Shown here in pieces: positions 1-46,050 of a stretch of 64,000 bases of DNA. Position numbers and translations under genes: made by a program. The notes under the pieces were generated by a model. The model saw only the letters and a program-made list of their open reading frames with translations. It searched no databases and was not told where the DNA came from. Origin of the DNA: an uncultured Elusimicrobiales bacterium. Its GTDB lineage: Bacteria > Elusimicrobiota > Elusimicrobia > Elusimicrobiales > Elusimicrobiaceae. How positions within the stretch are numbered: position 1 is the stretch's first letter; each line of letters opens with the position of its first letter. Location of the stretch: the NCBI GenBank assembly GCA_944324645.1, contig CALUXB010000001.1, positions 428,837-492,836 of the forward strand. Reading direction: 5' to 3'.

Positions 1-960
1 TTAGTTTTGATATGGAAATTCTGCTGCGCGTCGTTCTGACTCTTTTGCTGGCTATAGCCATATGGGGTTTGCCAGTGAATGGTATCAGATGAAATAGATT
101 TCGTGCACCGGCGCAAAAAAAGAATGCGCGGTCCGACGGGAGGAGAGGTTGTTCTCCTCCCGCTTGCTGTTTTGTTTTATAGGAAAGGCAAAAGAAGAGG
201 GATTAAAAAGAAGTCTTGGATAGAAAGAATTAAATCCCTTGATAGCACTTAGGTTTCCAAGCCGCAGCAGGCGAATTTGCCCCTAGGCAAGCAGATAGGG
301 ATGCTCAAAGCAGAAAAAATGAGGGGCCCAAATAGGCAAAATGGCGGGGTGGGAAAAAAGGAAAGTTCTTTGCGCGGAGAAGAAAGAGAGATGCATCGGC
401 GCTACTACCCTATAAGGATAAAGGCCGGCGCGCTCAAAAGTAAGGTTAGTAACAAGAAAGTTTTTGGACGAGCAGGGATATTTATTTTATGAAAGCTACC
501 CAGAATATGGCGTTGAAAGAAGAACAGAGCAAAAAGAAAATAGTGAACTCCGGTACAAAATCGTGGGATAAGATTTGCTTAGAAAACCATATTTTTAGGC
601 AAGTGGCCTTGAAAGAAGCGATAGTATATAGCCGTGCGGGGCGGCTGTATGTGCTGGGCGGCGGGGACGTTTTACAAGCCTTAGTGTCTATCTATAATCA
701 TTTTTTTGGCAGGCAGAATGAGCGTTTTATGCGGGCGGCGCGCAGGAATAGGGCGCAAGAAGAATATGCCTTTGCCTGCCACTATGGCCAAGAGGAGAAA
801 CAAATGCCAATCCAAAAACTTTTTTTCTATCTCCCCGGCTGCCGAAAAGGCAGGAAAAGTTAAAATGCCTAAAAGCCGAAAATAAAAAAGCATACCCCTT
901 TCCCTGCAAGAGAAGGGAAAACTTTATCATAAAAAGGCCGGCAAATAGAATGTCCGAATT

Positions 961-1737
961 TTATCTGCGCGCCATTTTCCACATCAGCCGGCGCAAACAG
1001 GTGCGATGGGTAACCGGAAAAACACAAAGCAGCTTGTCTGCAGACAAGGGCAACAGGTTATTGCCGGGTTGGTTGCCAATAAGCAAAGAGAAATGATTGC
1101 GTGCCGTTTGCAATACGGCGGGGCGCTGTGGATTTTCAAACGGGAAATACAGCGCAAGGGGCTTTAATTTATACAGCTGTTGCAGACGGGTTTTGTTTTC
1201 CAGCAATTTCCAGGAAATGTTTTCCGTATCTTCCCCATTGGCGGCAGTCCCATCCAGCGTAGAAGATACAAACTCCACCCGGTTACTTCTTTGAAGTTGT
1301 TGGATTTGGGCCGCGGTGAGCAAGTTTTGCCAAGGGCCCTTTTGGGCCGATTGCCAGGCATTGTATTGGCCGATAAGACCGGCTGAGAGAGCCACTGCGG
1401 CTTTGGCTTGGTATTTTTCCAACAAGGGATAAACATCGGTAAAAAAAGACTGGTATCCCCCTGTAAATAGCAATAAAACCGGGTGTTGCACCTGCGGGGA
1501 ACGGGCCAAATCACGCGGCAGCAGAGGGGTAAAACCGGTTGTTTTTAGACGAGCAAGTAAAGCGGCTAAACGGGCCTGTGAGAGCCCAGCAGAACGGCTG
1601 TTTGTGTGGGCCTGCGCTTCCACTTGGCTGATAAGCAATACCGGCAAAGTGGCTTGTTTGGCGCGCAGTAAGGGACTTATAAACAGTAAAACAGCCGCGA
1701 GAACGCCGGCCAGGCAGATTTCAAATAGCAGTATCAT
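961..1737 (-). CDS. Polysaccharide deacetylase (CE4/NodB)-like protein, probably catalytically inactive
   Basis: N-terminal TM helix. Aligns with the neighbouring deacetylase but has LLFTGGY for TFDDGY and SSTLDG for SHTLSH. Start overlaps the upstream stop (TAATG). Confidence 0.75.
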   Translation of the reverse strand: MILLFEICLAGVLAAVLLFISPLLRAKQATLPVLLISQVEAQAHTNSRSAGLSQARLAALLARLKTTGFTPLLPRDLARSPQVQHPVLLLFTGGYQSFFTDVYPLLEKYQAKAAVALSAGLIGQYNAWQSAQKGPWQNLLTAAQIQQLQRSNRVEFVSSTLDGTAANGEDTENISWKLLENKTRLQQLYKLKPLALYFPFENPQRPAVLQTARNHFSLLIGNQPGNNLLPLSADKLLCVFPVTHRTCLRRLMWKMARR

Positions 1738-27780: not shown

Positions 27781-28257
27781 ATGAAAAAATTTGCTTATTG
27801 GGGCCGCGGTGGTTTTACGCTGGCAGAGTTGATGGCGGTGGTGGTAATTATTGCTATTTTGGCGGGGATTGCTATTGGCTCTTACCGCCGCTCTGTAGAA
27901 AGAGCGCATTTTGCAGATATGCGTTCGCTGGCGCATCAGGTAGCGGCCGCACGGGATGTATATTATTATGATCATCAGTATGGTGGAAGCTCTGCTTCTA
28001 TGCCAACGGCGTTTAGTCTGCTCTCACTAGAACTGTCCGGCACGAATGGGGCAACCTATCAGGGAGCTCATTTTAAGCTGGATATTTCTAATTCCAGATA
28101 TGTTAAAGCAACTCATAACGACGGCAACTACGGCCTTTGTGTGTATCAGGAAGCCAATGTGCGCGGGAAGGTGTCGGATGAGAAATGTCTAGGCATAACT
28201 ACCGAGGGCAATGAATTTTGCCAAACGATGGGTTATACGCCGGCTTCAAGCTGTTAA
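27781..28257 (+). CDS. Type IV pilin-like protein
   Basis: G|FTLAELMAVVVIIAILAGIA; RBS AAGGAG; C-terminal Cys residues. Confidence 0.9.
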   Translation: MKKFAYWGRGGFTLAELMAVVVIIAILAGIAIGSYRRSVERAHFADMRSLAHQVAAARDVYYYDHQYGGSSASMPTAFSLLSLELSGTNGATYQGAHFKLDISNSRYVKATHNDGNYGLCVYQEANVRGKVSDEKCLGITTEGNEFCQTMGYTPASSC

Positions 28258-30569: not shown

Positions 30570-31145
30570 ATGAAAATATACGCAGTAATGTTATGCAGCT
30601 GCTTGGTCTTGTGTGGGTGTGCCGCGGTTACTTCGTCCGGGGCGCCGCGTTACCGCGTGAGCACAGAGCGGGAACCCCCTTATTACTTGGGAACAAATGC
30701 GGAAGAAGTGGAAGATACCTGCCCGGGGAATGATATTTTAAAGCAATACAACTGTTCGCGCAAACAAGACGACGGTTTTGCCTGTTTTGACGTATATTTG
30801 GCACAGGGCAGCCCGGTTAATAACCAACGCTATTCTTTGCTGCAAGAGCGCGTAGAACGCCAGTCCGTCAGCCCGCAGCCCCAGTGCCCGGCTATGGAGC
30901 CTACCTGCGAAGCTTTTCTGCAGGCATTGAATTATAATTTGGAATTTTCCTGGTATTTGGTCAACTTTCCTACCTCGTCATTTCCCCAATGCCGTGAAAC
31001 GTATGATTGCAAACGGATAGATTGTTATCTCCCTCCGGACCCGTCTAAAGGGATAAAAGAATCCACCTTGGTGTCTTGCGTGTATAAACGAAACCAGCTG
31101 TTCTTTGTAGGCTCCGAGATTACTTGCCGTCAGACACCTCGCTAA
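30570..31145 (+). CDS. Cys-rich putative lipoprotein, hypothetical
   Basis: Signal ending LVLCGC; 10 further Cys in the mature part. Confidence 0.7.
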   Translation: MKIYAVMLCSCLVLCGCAAVTSSGAPRYRVSTEREPPYYLGTNAEEVEDTCPGNDILKQYNCSRKQDDGFACFDVYLAQGSPVNNQRYSLLQERVERQSVSPQPQCPAMEPTCEAFLQALNYNLEFSWYLVNFPTSSFPQCRETYDCKRIDCYLPPDPSKGIKESTLVSCVYKRNQLFFVGSEITCRQTPR

Positions 31146-31283
31146 ATAAAAGTATCCATTTCCTCTAAAAATGACGGCTATAAAATGGCCGTCTATTTTC
31201 TCTTGCAAGAAAAGCAGTAATTTATTAGCATATAGAAAACACGGCCCCGCGGGGGCCGCGATTACGCGCGCTCGAGGGAATAT

Positions 31284-34200
31284 ATGGCCAACAAAATCTT
31301 TTCGTTTTTCTCTAAAGATGGCAAAGAGTCGGCAAACTTGGAACAGTTTGAAGAATTTTTAAACTTACTGCCCTGTGCAGCTTGTTTAATAAACGATAAA
31401 GGGGAAATATTGCTGGCTAATGAAAAAATGACAGCCGTCTCCGGATTTAGCGTTTCCTCTTTAAAAGGGACGGCTCTGTCTGAATATGGTTTGACTTGGC
31501 CCGATATTGAAGGGTTGCTGAATAATAAAGAACCTTCCTCCCTGATGAAAGAAATGGTCACCAAAGATATGGAGGCCGTTTATATGAATATTCGGGCTTC
31601 GCGCGTGCCCAATTTGCCCTATAGTATTGTGAGTTTTGATTCAGCCCCGCAGTACCGCCGCTTGCTTAAAGAAAAATCTTTTTTTAAATCTATTGTGGAT
31701 AATTATCCCTTCGCCGTTACCGTGCAGGATAAGCAAGGTGTATGTTTGGTTTGGAACGATAAGGCGGAAAAAATGTTTGGCCAGTCGGTTTCCGGTGCCA
31801 TCGGCCGGAAAATGAATGAATTGTTGCCCCAGCAGCTTTCTGTGGCAGTTGATATGCTGGATAAAGAAGTGCGGGAGAAAAAACAAAACCGCGTAGGCCG
31901 GCAGATGAGCTTTAAAAATTCCCGCAACAAAGAGACCATTTTATCCGTCACGAAAGTACCTACATTTGATGCCTCCGGCCATCTGATGACTGTCTTGACC
32001 GTATATGAAGATATTACGGCCCGCCGCGCCCAAGAAGAGGATTTGCTGCAAACCCGCAACTTGCTGCAGGCTATTTTGGATCACGTACCGATGGGGATTT
32101 ACACTCGTACTGTAGATGGAGTAATGACGTTTTTTAATAAGCAAAGCCAAGTTGTTTTTGCGGAAACAGAACCCAAATGCGTCAATGCGCCTCATCCCAA
32201 GCAGACGGCTGCTACCATTCGGCAATATGCGGAGCGGGAAAGAAAAATTTTGGAAGAAGGAAAAATGCGAGATTATCCAGATGAAATTTATGTGGACCGG
32301 GAAGGGCGAGAAAAGATTATCCATATGATTAAAGTGCCGCTGCGCCACGCCGGGCCAGAGCCGCTGGTGCTTAGCATTGTAGAGGATGTGACATCCAAAC
32401 GAGAACAGGAGCGGGAAATCGCCAAGGCAAATAGCTTTTTGGCGGCTATCGTTGATAATGCCCCTATTGGTTTGTATGCGCGTACCAAAGAGGGCAAAAT
32501 GCTGCTGCGCAACAAAAGATGTGCGGAAATTTTTGGCACGGCTGATAGCTGCTTTGACGAACAAGGATCTTTGCCGCACGAAACCAAAGAGCAAATTAGC
32601 AGTTATTTGAACCGGGAAGTAGAGGTAATGGAGTCTGGCCGTCCTTTAGATATTCCAGAAGAAGAATATGCTACGGGAGATGGCAAACGGTTGTTGCTTC
32701 ATATGGTAAAAGTTCCTGTTTCGGACGCAGAAGGCAACCCGGAATTTGTTATTACGATGGTAGAGGATGTTACAGAGAAAAAAGAACAGGAGCGCCGTTT
32801 GGTGGAGGCGAAAAACTTCCAGCAGGCAATTTTGGACAATGCCCCGTTAGCTATTTATGCCCGCGGAGTGGATTTATCTATGAGTTTCGTTAACCGGAAA
32901 GCGTCCGAAATGTTCCCAAATGAAACAATTTATAAAGAAGAAGACAATTTCTACGGAGAACGCGAAAGAGAATTTTTCCGCCAGGGGAAAATAGTGGATA
33001 TCCCGGAGGAGGAATATATTACCAAAACGGGTAATAAAATTTTGCTGCATTTAATTAAGGCGCCGGTCTATGATAAAGAAGGCAAACCGTTTATGATGCT
33101 TTCCATTGCAGAAGATATTACAGATAAACGGGATAAAGAACGCCGCTTAAATGAGGCACAGGCCTTGCAGCAAAGTATATTGGACAATGCCCCAGTAGCT
33201 ATCTATGCTTATGATGTAAATCACAATATCTGTTTCTTTAACAAAGAGGCAGACCGTCTTTTCCCTGGGGAAATGCTTTCTACGGAAGATGGCAGAGGCT
33301 ATAATGAGCGGGAGCAGGAAATTTTCAAAAAGAAGGAAATAGTGGAAATTCCAGAAGAAGAATATATCCGCAAAGATGGTAAGAAATTGTTGGTGCATTT
33401 AACCAAGGCCCCTATCTTTGACAGTTTAGGCAACCCACAAATGGTGCTGACGATAGCCAATGATATCACTCAGAAAAAACAGCAGGAAATAGAAATCCGT
33501 GAGTCTAAAAACTTCTTGCAAAACGTGGTAGATAACCTGCCTATTGCGTTGTCTGTAAAACGACATAACGGGGAGTATATTGTTTGGAACAAAAAGAGCG
33601 AGGATTTGTTCGGCGTGTCGGCTAAAGATGTCATTGGTAAAGACAATTACCGTACGGATATTACCAAAGAACAAGCCGAATTTATGCGGGAATCAGATGA
33701 AAAAGTTTTCCAAAGCCGCCGGGAACTCAATATCCCGCAAGAGCTGATTTCCACTCCAAACGAAGGGGTTAAAATTATGCATACGGTAAAAACGCCGTTG
33801 TATAAGCCCGATGGTTCGCCGGATTATTTGTTGAATGTATCGGAAGATATCACGGCGAAAACGAAAATGGAAAAACAAATCCGGGAAACGGGGGAAAAGA
33901 ACTCGCTGTTGGTAGAAAATGCACGGGAAGGTATTTTGATTTTGGAAGATTATAAAATCATTTACGCTAACCGCGCCGCTTGCCGCATTCTGGGATATGA
34001 AGCCGTAGAGGAAATTGTGCGGCGGCCGCTGCTGGATTTTGTGGCGGCGGATCATCAGATATTTGCGAAAGACAAATATGAATCGGTGATTAACGGCTTA
34101 GAAGGCGCTTCTGAACCGGCCCAACTGCATTTTGTTAAAAAATCCGGCGTGGTGGCGGAAGTGGAATTTGCGGCGATGGCCTCTAAGTATTTGGGGCGGC

Positions 34201-36668
34201 GCATTGTTATCGGCTTTTTGCGGGACGTAACGGCAGTTAATAAGACGATGCGCGATGTGCGTGGTGAGCGTGAAAAATTCAAAAACGTGTTTGAGCGCGG
34301 TTTGCTGCCGGCTTTGATTCTTAACCATAAAGGTTATATCAATGTGATGAACAAAGCCGCACGGGATATGTTCCGTCTGAATGAAAATGACCGCAATTTC
34401 TACCGCAATGTTTATATCCGCCCGGCCTTGACGCTGGACGTGCGCCGCAAGCTGCGCCGCGGAGAAAGTGCGTATATGGATTATACGTTTGACTTTGACA
34501 AAGCGGCGGCACAGTTCCCGGGCCGCATCCACGGGGAAGGCAAAATGTTGCTTCACGTTACGCTGGAGCCCTTTAACCGCCGCGACTGCCAAGACGGCAC
34601 GGTAGAAGCAGATTACTTGGTTACCTTAGACCGCCGCGAACGCGGCGGCTCTACGCAGCCTCCCGGCGGAAAAATGACGGACGGCAAACCTGCTCCTTTA
34701 AAAGCGCTTCGCCCTCCGCAGCCGCCTGCAGCCGTTTTGTTGCCTAATACAGAGCCGTATGTAATCTGCTCTTCCAAATTCAAGATTACTTCTTGTAATG
34801 AACTGTTCTGTACGCTCTGCCAGTTGCAGCCGGAAGAATTGAAAGGGCAAGAAATTATTAAGCTTTTTAGCCAAGACAGTATTCCGCTGTTAATGGCAGA
34901 CTTGAAAACACTTATGTCTAAAGGCAGTATGGAAAACCGCGAATATTTGATTTGTTTGGCCAGCGGTTTGGAAACGTCGCCTGTGCGCGTGAGTGCTTTG
35001 CGGGCCCAAAATGGAAGCTATGTGTTTATTTTCCGCAATATGGCCTTCCAAAAGCAGATTATGCATATTTTGCAGGAACGTTCCGCCCAGCTGAATGCAT
35101 TGTTGGAGGCCACGGACGGGGCGGTTTTCTCCGTGCATTATGAGGAGGGCAAATTGGGCCGGGTGGAACAGGCCAATAAGTTTTTAGCCCAGCTGATTGG
35201 TTATTCCCACGATGAGTTGACCTCTATGGCCTTTGCCCAATTATTTACGCAGAAAGATGGTAAAAATGCGGAAGAAGTGGCGGAAACACTGAACCAGGCG
35301 GTTAAAGATTTGGAAACCAAAGGCCGTGCTTCTTTTGGCGCCGTATTGTTCACCAAAGACGGTCGCCATATAGAAACTTCTGTTACGTTGACTGCTTTGG
35401 ATATCCCCGGCAAAAATGCAGTTTTGGCTCTGGTGACGGATTTGTCAGACCTGCTGGAACGTATATCTCATAATTCCCGCGAAGCACTGGAGTTGCGCAG
35501 CGTGCGGCAATCTTTGCCCGGTTTGTATTTAAAAACGGACGGAGAAGGGGTGGTGTTGGAAGTGTCTTCCAATTTGCCGTATTTGGATACGGACCAGGCC
35601 CGGAGTATTTTCTTGGGAAAAACGCCCAGCCAATATTGGCCGGAAGATGCTGCCGCTAAAGAATTGTTTGCTATTAAAGAAGCTTGCAGCGTGAACATCA
35701 ATACGACTTTTGAGTTTGATTGGGACTATGCAGACAAACGCCGCTTTTTTGAAGCGGTCTGCACGCCTATCAGCGGTCAAAACCAAGTGGTCATTTGGTT
35801 GCGCGACGTAACGGACCGCCGCGTTCACGAGCGGCATATCCGCCAACTGTACGATATCAGCAATGAGAATAAATCTACCATTACCCAACAAGTAGATAAA
35901 ATCTTGGATTTTGGTAAAAAAGTATTTCAGGCGGATGTAGGAATTGTGTTGCGCTTCCGGGAATCCAACCCGGATGAACTTACGGTAGTATATGCCACGC
36001 CCAGTCCTTTTAATATTGAGCGGTATATGGTGTTCCCGGTAGAGGAATGCCTGTTTGATGTGCGTGATGACAATGTGGTGGTGTTTGCCGATTTAGCTAA
36101 CACAAACTGCAAGCGCTGTATCCATAAAGAGAAAGAGTTTGGTTCTTTGATTGCTGCCCCGTTATATGTAGGTGGCAAGGTGGCAGGGGCTTTGTGTTTT
36201 GCGGCGCGCGCGCCTAAAGCCCGCTTTGTGGAAGGGGCTGAAGAACTGATAGGTATTATGTCGCGCATTTTGAGTTTGCGCATAGAGCTGCGTGAAGCCA
36301 GTAAAACGCTGGGGGAGACTTCCCAAAGCTTTATTCGTACCTTGGAATATGTGGATTTGCCCGCCGTAGTGCTGGATTTGCAATACCGCGTAAAATATGC
36401 CAACGAGGTGTTTTTGGCTTCTACTGGCCGGCGCCGGCAAACGGTGGAAGACCGAGAGTTCTTTGATGAGTTTATCCGGATTGCCGACGGCAGCCGCCGT
36501 ATGTTTGAAACCAGCAGCAAAAATGCTTCTGGAAATGCTTTCCAAGTAAAATTGGACTTGGTGGACGAGCACGGCAAATATACGGCCACCGGCTGGGATG
36601 TCTTTTTGATTAAAGACATTAAAGGCGAGGTGGAAGGCTACGGCCTTATTGGCGTGCGCAAACAATAA
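31284..36668 (+). CDS. Giant cytoplasmic multi-PAS plus GAF protein (1794 aa), no output domain visible
   Basis: About 13 PAS/PAC repeats (e.g. AILDNAP.AIY...G...F.N; V.DIT..K) and a GAF (GSLIAAPLYVGGKVAGALCF). Confidence 0.9.
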   Translation: MANKIFSFFSKDGKESANLEQFEEFLNLLPCAACLINDKGEILLANEKMTAVSGFSVSSLKGTALSEYGLTWPDIEGLLNNKEPSSLMKEMVTKDMEAVYMNIRASRVPNLPYSIVSFDSAPQYRRLLKEKSFFKSIVDNYPFAVTVQDKQGVCLVWNDKAEKMFGQSVSGAIGRKMNELLPQQLSVAVDMLDKEVREKKQNRVGRQMSFKNSRNKETILSVTKVPTFDASGHLMTVLTVYEDITARRAQEEDLLQTRNLLQAILDHVPMGIYTRTVDGVMTFFNKQSQVVFAETEPKCVNAPHPKQTAATIRQYAERERKILEEGKMRDYPDEIYVDREGREKIIHMIKVPLRHAGPEPLVLSIVEDVTSKREQEREIAKANSFLAAIVDNAPIGLYARTKEGKMLLRNKRCAEIFGTADSCFDEQGSLPHETKEQISSYLNREVEVMESGRPLDIPEEEYATGDGKRLLLHMVKVPVSDAEGNPEFVITMVEDVTEKKEQERRLVEAKNFQQAILDNAPLAIYARGVDLSMSFVNRKASEMFPNETIYKEEDNFYGEREREFFRQGKIVDIPEEEYITKTGNKILLHLIKAPVYDKEGKPFMMLSIAEDITDKRDKERRLNEAQALQQSILDNAPVAIYAYDVNHNICFFNKEADRLFPGEMLSTEDGRGYNEREQEIFKKKEIVEIPEEEYIRKDGKKLLVHLTKAPIFDSLGNPQMVLTIANDITQKKQQEIEIRESKNFLQNVVDNLPIALSVKRHNGEYIVWNKKSEDLFGVSAKDVIGKDNYRTDITKEQAEFMRESDEKVFQSRRELNIPQELISTPNEGVKIMHTVKTPLYKPDGSPDYLLNVSEDITAKTKMEKQIRETGEKNSLLVENAREGILILEDYKIIYANRAACRILGYEAVEEIVRRPLLDFVAADHQIFAKDKYESVINGLEGASEPAQLHFVKKSGVVAEVEFAAMASKYLGRRIVIGFLRDVTAVNKTMRDVRGEREKFKNVFERGLLPALILNHKGYINVMNKAARDMFRLNENDRNFYRNVYIRPALTLDVRRKLRRGESAYMDYTFDFDKAAAQFPGRIHGEGKMLLHVTLEPFNRRDCQDGTVEADYLVTLDRRERGGSTQPPGGKMTDGKPAPLKALRPPQPPAAVLLPNTEPYVICSSKFKITSCNELFCTLCQLQPEELKGQEIIKLFSQDSIPLLMADLKTLMSKGSMENREYLICLASGLETSPVRVSALRAQNGSYVFIFRNMAFQKQIMHILQERSAQLNALLEATDGAVFSVHYEEGKLGRVEQANKFLAQLIGYSHDELTSMAFAQLFTQKDGKNAEEVAETLNQAVKDLETKGRASFGAVLFTKDGRHIETSVTLTALDIPGKNAVLALVTDLSDLLERISHNSREALELRSVRQSLPGLYLKTDGEGVVLEVSSNLPYLDTDQARSIFLGKTPSQYWPEDAAAKELFAIKEACSVNINTTFEFDWDYADKRRFFEAVCTPISGQNQVVIWLRDVTDRRVHERHIRQLYDISNENKSTITQQVDKILDFGKKVFQADVGIVLRFRESNPDELTVVYATPSPFNIERYMVFPVEECLFDVRDDNVVVFADLANTNCKRCIHKEKEFGSLIAAPLYVGGKVAGALCFAARAPKARFVEGAEELIGIMSRILSLRIELREASKTLGETSQSFIRTLEYVDLPAVVLDLQYRVKYANEVFLASTGRRRQTVEDREFFDEFIRIADGSRRMFETSSKNASGNAFQVKLDLVDEHGKYTATGWDVFLIKDIKGEVEGYGLIGVRKQ

Positions 36669-36691: not shown

Positions 36692-36732
36692 AACAACGGG
36701 GAATGCAAGCAGCATTCCCCGTTGTTTTTCTT
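36692..36732 (+). terminator. Terminator after the PAS gene
   Basis: 15-bp stem AACAACGGGGAATGC/GCATTCCCCGTTGTT with T-rich tail. Confidence 0.85.
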
Positions 36733-38840: not shown

Positions 38841-38890
38841 AAGTAATAGCACAGGAGATTATTTTGCAGCAGGTCGTAAAGGGAGAATTT

Positions 38891-39364
38891 ATGCCTTTTT
38901 TAGGGTTTAAACAAAAAACTGGATTTACTTTAATAGAATTACTGGTAATTGTGTTGATTTTGGGGGTCTTAACCTCCATAGCGCTGCCGCAATACCGTCG
39001 TTCTGTGGAGCGGGCTCGTGTGGCGGAAGCGCTGACGTTGGTGCGGTCTATCTATGATTCGTGTGAGCGGCTGGCGTGGGAAAACCAAAAAAATAACTGT
39101 GGAGCGGCGGTGACGGCTGGCATAGCAAAATTTCCTAAATTGGATATTACGATAAAGGGAACCTACTCCTCAACAGGGACGGCATTACTTACGGATAACT
39201 TTACCTATGAGTTGGGCAATAATATTACGGCTACTTCCGTTAAAGGCAGTTATCAAGGCGCAAAAATAGTATTTAATGGCCGGAATTTCTCTTGTTCTGC
39301 GCCAGCTTCAGGGGAAGCTTCCAGGGCCTGTTCGGTGTGGGGGGCTTCCACTTGGAATGAGTGA
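38891..39364 (+). CDS. Type IV pilin-like protein (cluster gene 1)
   Basis: G|FTLIELLVIVLILGVLTSIALPQY; RBS GGGAG. Confidence 0.9.
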   Translation: MPFLGFKQKTGFTLIELLVIVLILGVLTSIALPQYRRSVERARVAEALTLVRSIYDSCERLAWENQKNNCGAAVTAGIAKFPKLDITIKGTYSSTGTALLTDNFTYELGNNITATSVKGSYQGAKIVFNGRNFSCSAPASGEASRACSVWGASTWNE

Positions 39365-39371
39365 GGAAATT

Positions 39372-39827
39372 ATGAATAAGAAAGGTTTTACATTAATGGA
39401 ACTTTTGACGGTAGTTATTATGATTGGTATATTGACGGCGGTTGCTTTGCCGCAGTACCGCAAAGTGGTGGAAAAAGGCCGTTTTACCAAGGCGCAGGTA
39501 ATGGCAAAATCTATGTATGATTCTTGCCAACGGCTGATAGCGGAATGGGGAGAGGAGGATTATGCTTCTTTGCCGGCTTCTGTGCGGAAAATATCCCGTT
39601 TAGATATTGGCAGCACGGATTTATTGCCCAGCGGCTTTGTGCTCAATGATTCCAGCAATTTGATTTCCGGGGCTGGTTTCCAGTACACGCTGAGCGGAAA
39701 CTGTATTATTAACATCAAAAAAACGGAAGGCAATTACTCCGGTGTTACTATGGATTATAGCGGTGTACAATTTTATAATTGTAACGATAACGGCAACGGA
39801 GCCTGCGATATATATGGTATAGATTGA
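39372..39827 (+). CDS. Type IV pilin-like protein (cluster gene 2)
   Basis: MNKKG|FTLMELL; RBS GAGG. Confidence 0.9.
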   Translation: MNKKGFTLMELLTVVIMIGILTAVALPQYRKVVEKGRFTKAQVMAKSMYDSCQRLIAEWGEEDYASLPASVRKISRLDIGSTDLLPSGFVLNDSSNLISGAGFQYTLSGNCIINIKKTEGNYSGVTMDYSGVQFYNCNDNGNGACDIYGID

Positions 39828-39837
39828 GGAAAGTGAT

Positions 39838-40389
39838 ATGCAAAAAATGACAGCTATTTGGAGAAACCGTTTGTTTGCTGGCCGGAGGGGTTTTACCCTG
39901 ATGGAAATATTGGTGGCGGTATTGATTTTAGTTATTTTAATTACAATGTCCGTGCCGATGTATGAGCGTACAATAGAAAAATCCCGCGTGGCGGAAGTGA
40001 GTGCAATGCTTAAACGTCTGAGCGAGTCTAAACTGCGCACGATGGATAGCCGCAATCTTTTTACCTATACTTCGGGTAGTTTTGGCCTGAACCAGCTGGA
40101 CATCACAGTACCTGCCAGCCCGGATTTTTCTTTCAGTCTTTATCCCAGCTCTTATCCCAATGCGGTTTGTGCCAAGCGTAGCCGCGGCGATAATGCGGGA
40201 ACGGTCTTTTTGTATTTAGGAGAAACCGCCCCGGACTATTGCTCTAATTCCTCTTCTTCTGTATATAATACCAGCGTTTGCCAAGAATATCGCTCCAGCG
40301 GGCGCAAATTTTTCTGTCAAAACGCAACGGGTACAACCAGCTGTGACGCTTATAGCTTGACCAGCTACACGGTTGGCTCTTGCAGTTGA
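39838..40389 (+). CDS. Type IV pilin-like protein (cluster gene 3)
   Basis: RRG|FTLMEILVAVLIL; Cys-rich C-terminus. Confidence 0.9.
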   Translation: MQKMTAIWRNRLFAGRRGFTLMEILVAVLILVILITMSVPMYERTIEKSRVAEVSAMLKRLSESKLRTMDSRNLFTYTSGSFGLNQLDITVPASPDFSFSLYPSSYPNAVCAKRSRGDNAGTVFLYLGETAPDYCSNSSSSVYNTSVCQEYRSSGRKFFCQNATGTTSCDAYSLTSYTVGSCS

Positions 40390-45576: not shown

Positions 45577-46050
45577 TTAATAGCGGATAATATAACCCGC
45601 CTGTCCTTCAATTTCCGTATCAGGGCCTTCGTCTTGGCCGGCTTGGGTCTGGCAGAAACTGTCCCCGGCGTTATTAAGCGGCACGCAGACCAGTTGTTTG
45701 AGGTTGTCCTGCGTAGCCAGAAAATATTGTACGTTTTGGGAGGCATCCTTTAAACGCAGTTCCAGCTCCCAGCAGGATTCATTCGGGTCCTCTTTCAAGC
45801 GGCAGAAAAAAGCCACCGTGAAATATTTTAATTTGTTTTTTTCGTTGACTTCTTTTTCATAACGGTCGGCGCGTTCGCGGGTCATATGTTTGCCGGCGTC
45901 CACCCGCTTTAATTGCCCCCACCAAATGGTGGCTTCGGCGTTGCGGGCGCTCTGCACAGCGTTTTGATAGTATGGCAAGGCGATAGCAGCCAAAACGCCG
46001 ACAATTAAGAGAACCACCATTAACTCTATAAGAGAAAAGCCCTTTTTCAT
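45577..46050 (-). CDS. Type IV pilin-like protein
   Basis: MKKG|FSLIELMVVLLIVGVLAAIALPYY; ATGA overlap with the upstream gene. Confidence 0.88.
   Translation of the reverse strand: MKKGFSLIELMVVLLIVGVLAAIALPYYQNAVQSARNAEATIWWGQLKRVDAGKHMTRERADRYEKEVNEKNKLKYFTVAFFCRLKEDPNESCWELELRLKDASQNVQYFLATQDNLKQLVCVPLNNAGDSFCQTQAGQDEGPDTEIEGQAGYIIRY

Follow-up and report, generated by a model that had tools for sequence, protein, structure and literature searches.

What does a bacterium do with a protein of 1794 residues that is assembled from sensory domains and ends without an output? PAS/GAF proteins that lack an output are a known kind, common in genome databases but little studied, and to our knowledge few of them have a known readout. 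The one described here belongs to a gut bacterium of the Elusimicrobiaceae with a reduced genome (1.5 Mb), and is encoded in the window, the whole stretch of 64,000 nucleotides that was analysed. A literature search returned nothing relevant on Elusimicrobium PAS proteins or on stand-alone multi-PAS proteins. An earlier note, made from the letters of the window, had offered three roles for it: scaffold, ligand sink or regulator in trans. We conclude that the protein is a sensor array without an output in cis, and we see about an even chance that it is a soluble, cytoplasmic, multi-input array working in trans by way of protein contacts.

The gene is one intact open reading frame (31284..36668, forward strand) with an ATG start, and encodes a protein of the length first noted. 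It is monocistronic and flanked by terminators, the downstream one being the strong terminator that the note had described (Table 1). Pfam, NCBIfam and two AlphaFold models together yield 13 PAS folds and a single GAF, with a disordered Pro-rich linker between PAS8 and PAS9, in keeping with the initial count of about 13 PAS domains, a GAF near the end and a final PAS. The AlphaFold2 models, built with 34-35 orthologues, have pLDDT values of 79.7 and 81.8, and contain 8 + 5 = 13 canonical PAS folds besides the GAF and the linker. Assignment to the PAS arrays follows from this repeated fold, a sheet of five antiparallel strands with helices on its flanks, and from the Foldseek neighbours FixL, DosP and PpsR; that of the GAF follows from a PF01590 match at residues 1536-1666, above the cut-off of 22.4 bits, and from its predicted fold.

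Table 1. Features of the gene and its product, with positions in the window
Feature	Residues (aa)	Position	Strand	Basis and remarks
RBS GAGGG (31274-31278) and ATG (31284)		31274..31286	+	Sequence inspection; spacing 5 nt
PAS0	15-120	31326..31643	+	Pfam PAS, 26.8 bits, N-terminal half only; AlphaFold2 PAS fold
PAS1	122-243	31647..32012	+	Best Pfam and TIGR00229 match (130-254); AlphaFold2 fold
PAS2-PAS5	245-368, 370-495, 497-611, 613-727	32016..33464	+	Tandem paralogous units; AlphaFold2 folds
PAS6	729-855	33468..33848	+	Most conserved domain of the protein
PAS7	857-981	33852..34226	+	Best PAS_9 match (882-984); AlphaFold2 fold
PAS8	991-1117	34254..34634	+	AlphaFold2 PAS fold, pLDDT 85-92
Disordered Pro-rich linker	1120-1153	34641..34742	+	pLDDT <50
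PAS9, with Cys cluster C1162, C1171, C1176, C1179	1159-1252	34758..35039	+	PAS_9, 28 bits; AlphaFold2 fold
PAS10 and PAS11	1254-1386, 1388-1508	35043..35807	+	Pfam slices; AlphaFold2 folds
GAF	1510-1674	35811..36305	+	Pfam GAF, 27.9 bits; AlphaFold2 fold
PAS12, terminal domain	1680-1791	36321..36656	+	AlphaFold2 fold; profile matches
Intrinsic terminator-like hairpin		36692..36726	+	15-pair stem and T-run

The domains differ in how readily they are recognised. Searched whole, the protein matches only PAS-type families and the GAF in Pfam, and in NCBIfam ten sensory_box units (TIGR00229, 325 bits across 10 stretches). When it is searched in slices, PAS0, PAS2, PAS8, PAS11 and PAS12 are weak or fall under the Pfam cut-off. 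PAS8 goes unrecognised as a PAS by sequence models, its sole Pfam match being a weak one to MLTR_LBD. PAS12 has profile matches to PYP, LOV2 and the PAS of phytochrome A (E ~1e-4), and PAS6 has ThkA PAS as its closest solved sequence, in a match confined to the N-terminal half. Neighbouring domains are joined by helical linkers of ~22 residues each; the linker between GAF and PAS12 reads RIELREASKTLGETSQS and contains no acidic repeat.

Nothing in this inventory could serve as an output. HMM searches, the motif scan, the predicted folds and Foldseek comparison all failed to detect a kinase, cyclase, phosphodiesterase, HTH, MCP or transmembrane element, in agreement with what the note had read from the letters, and the profile scans and structure prediction that it proposed disclosed no cryptic effector and no recognisable catalytic domain. 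The motif scan of the protein found no H-box, N or G1 box, and no GGDEF, EAL, HD-GYP or Walker A pattern. HisKA and HisKA_3 gave no match in Pfam or NCBIfam, and no DHp-like helical hairpin appears in the AlphaFold2 models. HATPase_c is absent by Pfam, the genome's eight PF02518 matches all lying elsewhere, and GGDEF, EAL and HD-GYP are likewise missing from the protein, the four GGDEF matches of the genome being at other loci. NCBIfam kinase and PDE models match it through their PAS parts only. There is no transmembrane segment, the top Kyte-Doolittle window (1.61) being the core of the GAF. Foldseek searches of the PDB with both models return PAS/GAF arrays and nothing else. The chain ends, in the AlphaFold2 model, only 3 residues beyond the last strand of PAS12, and no helical tail follows that could extend into a DHp-like bundle.

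The same architecture recurs in the family: in the Elusimicrobiaceae it is shared by more than 120 clusters of proteins and, at the genomic level, by over 80 loci. The proteins of these clusters are 1264-1814 aa long (most 1550-1814), and consist of PAS and GAF domains only. The gene is single-copy, is present in almost every genome of the genus and in five of the ten genera of the family, and has orthologues in cultured relatives (e.g. Elusimicrobium simillimum). The C-termini of 34 aligned orthologues coincide to within 0-3 residues, and the most distant ones reach at most 16 residues beyond. None continues into a kinase; all end at PAS12, which answers the question of orthologue outputs that the note had raised. 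Given no catalytic domain in the protein and no such continuation among its orthologues, the interpretation as a sensor without an output in cis stands.

Might the protein nevertheless be what is left of a multi-PAS histidine kinase that is decaying or has been cut short, or else an artefact of assembly? Its GAF lends the idea some substance, for among the 3089 GAF proteins found with its profile the nearest relatives outside the family directly precede HisKA-HATPase_c, and descent from a kinase is thus plausible. A like input array occurs in multi-PAS/GAF kinases (P0142: PAS array, GAF, HisKA, HATPase_c), and the GAF is of a subfamily whose members usually lie directly against the DHp helix; in every orthologue of the giant protein, however, a PAS is found where the transmitter would be. 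As an account of the present-day gene the idea is barely credible and, indeed, already refuted. The frame is free of stops and intact in dozens of independent assemblies, the C-terminus occupies the same position across the family, a strong terminator lies immediately downstream, and dN/dS is ~0.05 overall (dS being saturated). Truncation and pseudogene status are ruled out by the shared architecture, the common C-terminus and this low ratio.

Selection is unevenly distributed along the chain. PAS6, the GAF and PAS12 have the lowest dN and are the most constrained parts; PAS0 evolves fastest, with the highest dN of the domains. PAS6 has a dN of 0.035-0.047, a mean majority-residue frequency of 0.82 and 35 invariant columns, and retains 56-71% identity even in Elusimicrobium orthologues. 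The Pro-rich linker has the highest dN/dS among the segments (0.18-0.25) and varies in length from 16 to 66 aa in the orthologues.

PAS1-PAS6 form one block of internally related domains, within which PAS2-PAS5 are 38-51% identical in pairwise comparisons. The motif (D/E)IPEEEY is found at residues 456, 572 and 688, with a period of 116 aa, and hhHxxKxP at 345, 471, 587, 703 and 831; the tandem PAS2-PAS5 units carry these motifs. The duplication with recurring motifs that the note had perceived in its 'PAS 3-7' is therefore real, and corresponds to PAS2-PAS6 in our numbering. Units of the PAS2-PAS5 type number one, two or three depending on the clade, PAS5 being an additional copy restricted to the closest relatives. 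Such variation is what one might see if the dosage of a binding site mattered and the protein did not signal at all, either buffering a cofactor or metabolite on PAS2-PAS5 as a ligand sink, or serving as a structural, organising scaffold. The lack of both an output domain and a conserved operon partner fits this as well. We nonetheless consider it distinctly improbable: at least 12 mutually divergent domains, each under strong purifying selection, fit distinct inputs better than bulk binding, the helical linkers between PAS domains resemble those of signalling proteins, and a 5.4-kb gene is a costly one in a 1.5-Mb genome. Of the three roles originally offered, between which the evidence discriminates only indirectly, regulation in trans is the best supported.

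Several cysteines raise the separate question of whether the array has a chemistry of its own. In the GAF, C1589, C1609-x2-C1612-x-H1614 and C1638 are conserved, these Cys and His residues being invariant or nearly so (32-35 of 35 orthologues). In PAS9, four Cys fall within 18 residues (C1162-x8-C1171-x4-C1176-x2-C1179) and are kept in 29-34 of the 35. The host lineage is anaerobic and lives in the gut, and one or both clusters might bind a metal or Fe-S centre or form redox disulfides, making the protein chiefly an oxygen or redox sensor, or a thiol enzyme. In NreB, for example, four Cys of a PAS domain hold a [4Fe-4S] cluster, in the pattern CxxC-x11-CxxC; the four Cys of PAS9 are spaced differently. 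fRMsr is a Cys-dependent GAF enzyme, but a catalytic GAF of this kind gained no support: at E<=1 the GAF profile retrieved neither fRMsr nor any other enzyme from the PDB, its matches being to regulator GAFs and confined to their C-terminal half. The conservation also has its exceptions, since CxxCxH is absent from several family clusters defined at 50% identity (P0126, P0128, P0131-P0133 and P0136), and the Elusimicrobium clade keeps only C1162 of the PAS9 cluster. C1589 and C1638, finally, are found in ordinary GAF-kinases too, and so are marks of the GAF subfamily, not of any special site. An intrinsic Cys chemistry is on this evidence unlikely, and it could in any case coexist with signalling in trans.

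Precedents for signalling of that sort come from Foldseek relatives whose target is a partner protein or DNA and which do not work through an enzyme domain: PpsR minus its HTH, AppA-PpsR, NifL-NifA, RpBphP1 and XccBphP. PpsR/CrtJ, AppA-PpsR and RpBphP1-PpsR2 (4hh2, 4hh3, 4gw9), which are among the top matches, are helix-linked PAS arrays that form elongated oligomers, and AppA and RpBphP1 act on PpsR through protein-protein contact rather than catalysis. PpsR itself combines three PAS domains with an HTH at the C-terminus and binds DNA, whereas the giant protein has no HTH, and their kinship in sequence extends to the PAS fold only (TIGR02040, 30 bits; cut-off 275). NifL (PAS1-PAS2-H-GHKL; 9qq6) is a PAS redox or ligand sensor that does not phosphorylate but binds a separate protein, NifA. 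It retains degenerate kinase-like H and GHKL domains for this contact and is co-transcribed with NifA; the giant protein lacks GHKL as well as any linked partner, and scores 81 bits with the NifL model TIGR02938 (cut-off 242). XccBphP (PAS-GAF-PHY-PAS9; 5akp, 6pl0) matches the C-terminal model, and is a PAS/GAF array in which a terminal PAS replaces the usual kinase, but it has two PAS domains and a PHY, against 13 PAS domains and no detectable PHY or bilin-binding CH motif in the giant protein, whose host is a gut anaerobe.

Smaller sensors without an output are also read by other proteins, among them NreA, a GAF that acts on NreB, the short LOV proteins and PYP. These are single-domain proteins, usually encoded beside the partner gene, whereas here there are 14 domains and no linked partner. 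Identity with PYP, LOV or phytochrome was rejected, the defining residues being absent. The LOV motif GxNCRFLQ, which holds the flavin-adduct Cys, was sought as [NG]CRFL and not found in the protein; PAS12 has no Cys, and so cannot be a PYP, whose chromophore is bound by Cys69 (TIGR02373 gives 23 bits; cut-off 143). The bilin-binding motif of phytochromes is C-H; here the Cys is part of C-I-H, the domain after the GAF is a PAS, and PHY (PF00360) has no match.

If the array speaks to another protein, which one? Every PAS domain of the genome that can be detected by sequence sits in this protein, all 10 TIGR00229 matches falling within its reading frame. No paralogue of any of its domains was found elsewhere in the genome, even in an unfiltered search at E<=1, and the idea of a PAS heterodimer partner recognisable by paralogy was discarded. 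Nor does the locus point to a partner: comparison across clades, between which the neighbours of the gene differ, revealed no conserved operon partner, and no kinase or che gene was present among the neighbours whose sequences were read. The sole recurrent neighbour encodes a Cys-rich lipoprotein without a family match, which lies next to the gene, in one orientation or the other, in Avelusimicrobium-type loci and is missing from the Elusimicrobium clade. The genome contains about a dozen signalling enzymes, with six histidine kinases, four GGDEF proteins and one GAF-HD-GYP protein as candidate transmitters.

Among these, an orphan kinase of 254 aa, encoded ~300 kb away at C1:152363-153127 on the minus strand and consisting of HisKA and HATPase_c (DHp and catalytic domain) only, is the leading candidate for the partner. 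In the four genera without the giant protein, the positional orthologue of this kinase is a GAF-PAS-HisKA-HATPase_c protein of 534-547 aa; of the five genera with the giant protein, four have the kinase in its short form. The fifth, g18, has the giant protein and no close orthologue of the short kinase. The giant protein and the kinase's sensor module are distributed in complementary fashion, a pattern that amounts to one transition on the tree and is thus confounded by phylogeny. Simple gene fission, with the GAF-PAS12 end as the module that the kinase lost, is not the explanation, and in this form the 'unlinked kinase' idea of the note is weakened: BLASTP gives no match, the GAF profile scores the GAF of the long kinases at 4.5-13 bits against 85-100 for unrelated GAF-kinases, and hhalign yields a probability (85%) that is no more than generic. 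Nor is the lost GAF-PAS encoded at another place in the genome, where the sole tblastn match is the GAF-HD-GYP protein on C7. The short kinase lies in a conserved operon of its own (OMP-like gene, kinase, 169-aa helical protein, PerM-like permease), and these neighbours, instead of the giant protein, could regulate it. The specific proposal that the giant protein is a detached, shared PAS/GAF input, docking non-covalently on this kinase and possibly on other transmitters so that sensing is centralised, is a speculative one, to which we attach a small probability. If true, a two-component sensor would here be divided into separately encoded sensor and transmitter polypeptides.

With neither an enzyme nor a DNA-binding end, the giant protein probably passes on its signal through contact with another protein. 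The analogy of PpsR, FixL, DosP and NifL suggests a long parallel dimer, in which individual PAS and GAF units would sense changes in ligand or redox state and the signal would travel along the helical spine of the array. Readout might then occur by direct contact of its most constrained parts, PAS6 and GAF-PAS12, with a separately encoded transmitter. With about a dozen signalling enzymes in the genome, its PAS domains gathered in one protein, and one kinase stripped of its sensor, the space in which to search for the partner is small. The case could reveal how a sensor array without a transmitter relays what it senses, and how the wiring of signalling networks changes in the course of genome reduction.

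The giant PAS protein, the product of a single open reading frame of 1794 codons, is made up of PAS and GAF domains. Over its whole length, Pfam finds PAS-clan families and one GAF (aa 1536–1666) and nothing else; NCBIfam assigns ‘sensory_box’ to 10 stretches, and its kinase, PDE and NifL models match by their PAS parts only, all far under cut-offs. Because five PAS units (PAS0, PAS2, PAS8, PAS11 and PAS12, numbering the domains from the N-terminus) were weak or undetected by sequence in searches with domain slices, both halves of the protein were folded, separately, from alignments of 34–35 orthologues. The N-terminal model (pLDDT 79.7) comprises eight PAS folds connected by helices ~22 residues long. 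The C-terminal model (pLDDT 81.8) comprises PAS8, a linker, PAS9, PAS10, PAS11, the GAF and PAS12, in that order, and the chain ends three residues past the final strand of PAS12. Foldseek matched both models to PAS/GAF arrays only in the PDB (DosP, PpsR without its HTH, the FixL PAS dimer, LOV-PAS-HK, NifL–NifA, phytochromes, XccBphP and AHR–ARNT), and the PAS12 profile matches PYP, LOV2 and the phytochrome A PAS (E ~1e-4). Pattern scans of the protein found no H-box, N or G1 box, GGDEF, EAL, HD-GYP, Walker A or LOV motif, and it has no transmembrane helix, the most hydrophobic 19-mer (1.61) being the GAF core. The earlier note had described about 13 PAS domains with a GAF and a final PAS, and neither output motif nor transmembrane helix. 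Domain searches, fold models, and motif and repeat analysis confirm the count, and pattern scans, Pfam, NCBIfam and Foldseek agree on the absences.

The recurring motifs described in the same note are real: (D/E)IPEEEY occurs at aa 456, 572 and 688, and hhHxxKxP at aa 345, 471, 587, 703 and 831. PAS1–6 form one block of kin, within which PAS2–5 are 38–51% identical pairwise; PAS0 and PAS7–12 are unlike one another. There are three copies of the IPEEEY-type unit (PAS3–5) in this protein; most orthologues have two, and another clade has one. PAS5 is the extra copy, present in the query clade. Such differences in copy number between clades show that a 115–116-aa PAS unit has been gained or lost in tandem repeatedly. 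From PAS6 to PAS12 the architecture is invariant among orthologues.

Features of the giant PAS gene, its product and related loci (aa, residues of the giant protein)
Feature	Location	Strand	Remark
Giant PAS gene	window 31284–36668	+	open reading frame
GAGGG	5 nt 5' of its ATG	+	read from sequence
Leader hairpin	window 31240–31260		GC-rich, perfect (CGGCCCCGCGGGGGCCG); ~24 nt before start codon
Terminator hairpin	window 36692–36726	+	15-pair stem, 3' of gene
IPEEEY-type units	window 32391–33464	+	PAS3–5
PAS0–PAS7	aa 15–120, 122–243, 245–368, 370–495, 497–611, 613–727, 729–855, 857–981		N-terminal model
Disordered Pro-rich linker	aa 1120–1153		C-terminal model; between PAS8 and PAS9
GAF	aa 1510–1674		C-terminal model
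Cys-rich putative lipoprotein	window 30570–31145 (longest ORF starts 30399)	+	MKIYAVMLCSCLVLCGC...; adjoins giant PAS gene
Prepilin-like genes	window 27781–28257, 38864–39364, 39276–39827, 39838–40389, 45577–46050		N-terminal GFTLIELLVV-type leader
Short kinase, 254 aa	own genome C1:152363–153127	minus	orphan histidine kinase; HisKA and HATPase_c only
GAF-HD-GYP protein, 403 aa	own genome C7:14142–15353	+	

A protein lacking an output might simply come from a truncated gene, with homologues that run on into a kinase. We reject this. A search of 5.8 billion proteins returned >120 clusters of 1264–1814 aa (most 1550–1814) with PAS and GAF only by precomputed domains; all 35 aligned sequences stop near the same C-terminus, within 0–3 residues (the two most distant are up to 16 residues longer); and dN/dS is ~0.05 overall, synonymous sites being saturated. 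PAS6, the GAF and PAS12 have the lowest dN, PAS0 and the linker the highest. The protein is encoded at 80 genomic loci, nearly all in Elusimicrobiaceae MAGs, including Candidatus Avelusimicrobium, Elusimicrobium, the cultured E. simillimum Sma112 and termite-gut bins. No publication on the family turned up in literature searches.

The gene is monocistronic, and the strong terminator reported earlier does follow it. On its 5' side lie nadB and a small gene for a Cys-rich lipoprotein that matches no Pfam family; on its 3' side, on the opposite strand, lie genes for an FKBP-type isomerase and a GuaC/IMPDH-like protein. The neighbourhood varies from locus to locus. The sole persistent neighbour is the gene for the Cys-rich lipoprotein, which adjoins the giant PAS gene at most Avelusimicrobium-type loci, pointing the same way in the closest relatives and divergently in the others; in the Elusimicrobium clade, different genes take its place. 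The neighbours read from sequence, many others being known by length alone, include no kinase, cyclase or regulator. The leader hairpin, preceded by a promoter-like TTGCAA-17-TAGCAT, would be a minus-strand terminator by its score, yet no gene on that strand ends there. Elusimicrobia genomes are pilin-rich, and the many prepilin-like genes dispersed in the window agree with this.

The genome assembly (1.51 Mb, 9 contigs, 91.5% complete) contains eight HATPase_c matches, six of them histidine kinases, four GGDEF proteins, one GAF-HD-GYP protein and seven receiver domains. The GAF-HD-GYP protein, likely a c-di-GMP phosphodiesterase, adds to the GGDEF proteins in a genome very poor in sensors. 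All 10 sensory_box matches genome-wide fall inside the giant PAS gene, and domain profiles run against the six-frame translation (E<=1, filters off) found no paralogue of any of its domains elsewhere. Sequence-detectable PAS domains are therefore concentrated in one output-less protein.

One kinase stands out as a candidate partner, the short kinase, which starts ~24 residues ahead of its phospho-acceptor His. Among 61 Elusimicrobiaceae genomes, the giant protein occurs in genera g1, g13, g14 and g18, with a fragment in g12; orthologues of the short kinase (~250–285 aa, 44–87% identity) occur in g1, g12, g13 and g14. The giant protein is missing from g11, g15, g17 and g19; there the best-matching kinase is 534–547 aa long and has a GAF, a PAS-like segment (not detected by Pfam), HisKA and HATPase_c. 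Since the same OMP-like gene (~290 aa) lies upstream of both forms, they are positional orthologues. The giant protein is present where the kinase is short and absent where it is long, and so the kinase has lost its own sensor where the giant sensor is found; g18 is an exception, and the complementarity amounts to one transition on the tree. The short kinase also belongs to a conserved operon (OMP-like gene, kinase, 169-aa helical protein, PerM-like permease; loci L103 and L105–L109) with no response regulator adjacent, and could be regulated by the products of this operon instead. GAF-PAS12 is not the module that the kinase lost: BLASTP gave no matches, the GAF profile scores long kinases at 4.5–13 bits versus 85–100 for unrelated GAF-kinases, and hhalign similarity is generic only. 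Nor is the lost module encoded elsewhere in the genome. Specific pairing of the giant protein with this kinase is a lead only, and an improbable one.

Searched against 1.84 billion representative proteins, the GAF profile gives 16 clusters at E<1e-30, followed by a sharp fall in score. The majority are long proteins whose GAF, as here, ends ~110–140 residues from the C-terminus, alongside a few that are longer or fragmentary. Next in score come the GAFs of ordinary sensor kinases, placed directly before HisKA-HATPase_c (e.g. clusters P0142, P0145, P0147 and P0148). P0136 is one more PAS-GAF-PAS protein with no output. Because the nearest outside GAFs adjoin HisKA-HATPase_c, the family plausibly descended from a multi-PAS-GAF kinase whose transmitter was replaced by a PAS. 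C1589 and C1638 of the GAF are common to many GAF-HisKA-HATPase_c kinases; C1609-x2-C1612-x-H1614 is found in the main clade alone, and several family clusters lack it. In the PDB, the profile's only matches are to sigma-54-regulator GAFs, over their C-terminal half; fRMsr is not among them. In PAS9, Cys 1162, 1171, 1176 and 1179 are kept in 29–34 of 35 orthologues, and only C1162 in the Elusimicrobium clade. These Cys/His sites may point to redox or metal sensing, and we regard them as leads rather than findings.

The best-supported reading, to which we give about an even chance, takes the giant protein for a soluble PAS/GAF array with multiple inputs, probably a dimer, which signals in trans through contact with another protein, as PpsR does with AppA, NifL with NifA, and RpBphP1 with PpsR2. 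Its most constrained surfaces, PAS6 and GAF-PAS12, are likely contact or key input sites. Output-less PAS/GAF proteins are not new as a kind; this one, which has neither a C-terminal helical tail nor an acidic linker between the GAF and PAS12, is unusual in its extreme form. Its 13 PAS domains and one GAF fill ~0.36% of a 1.5-Mb genome in which no other PAS domain is detectable; a gut-associated clade has conserved them, and in those lineages the sensor of an orthologous kinase was lost.
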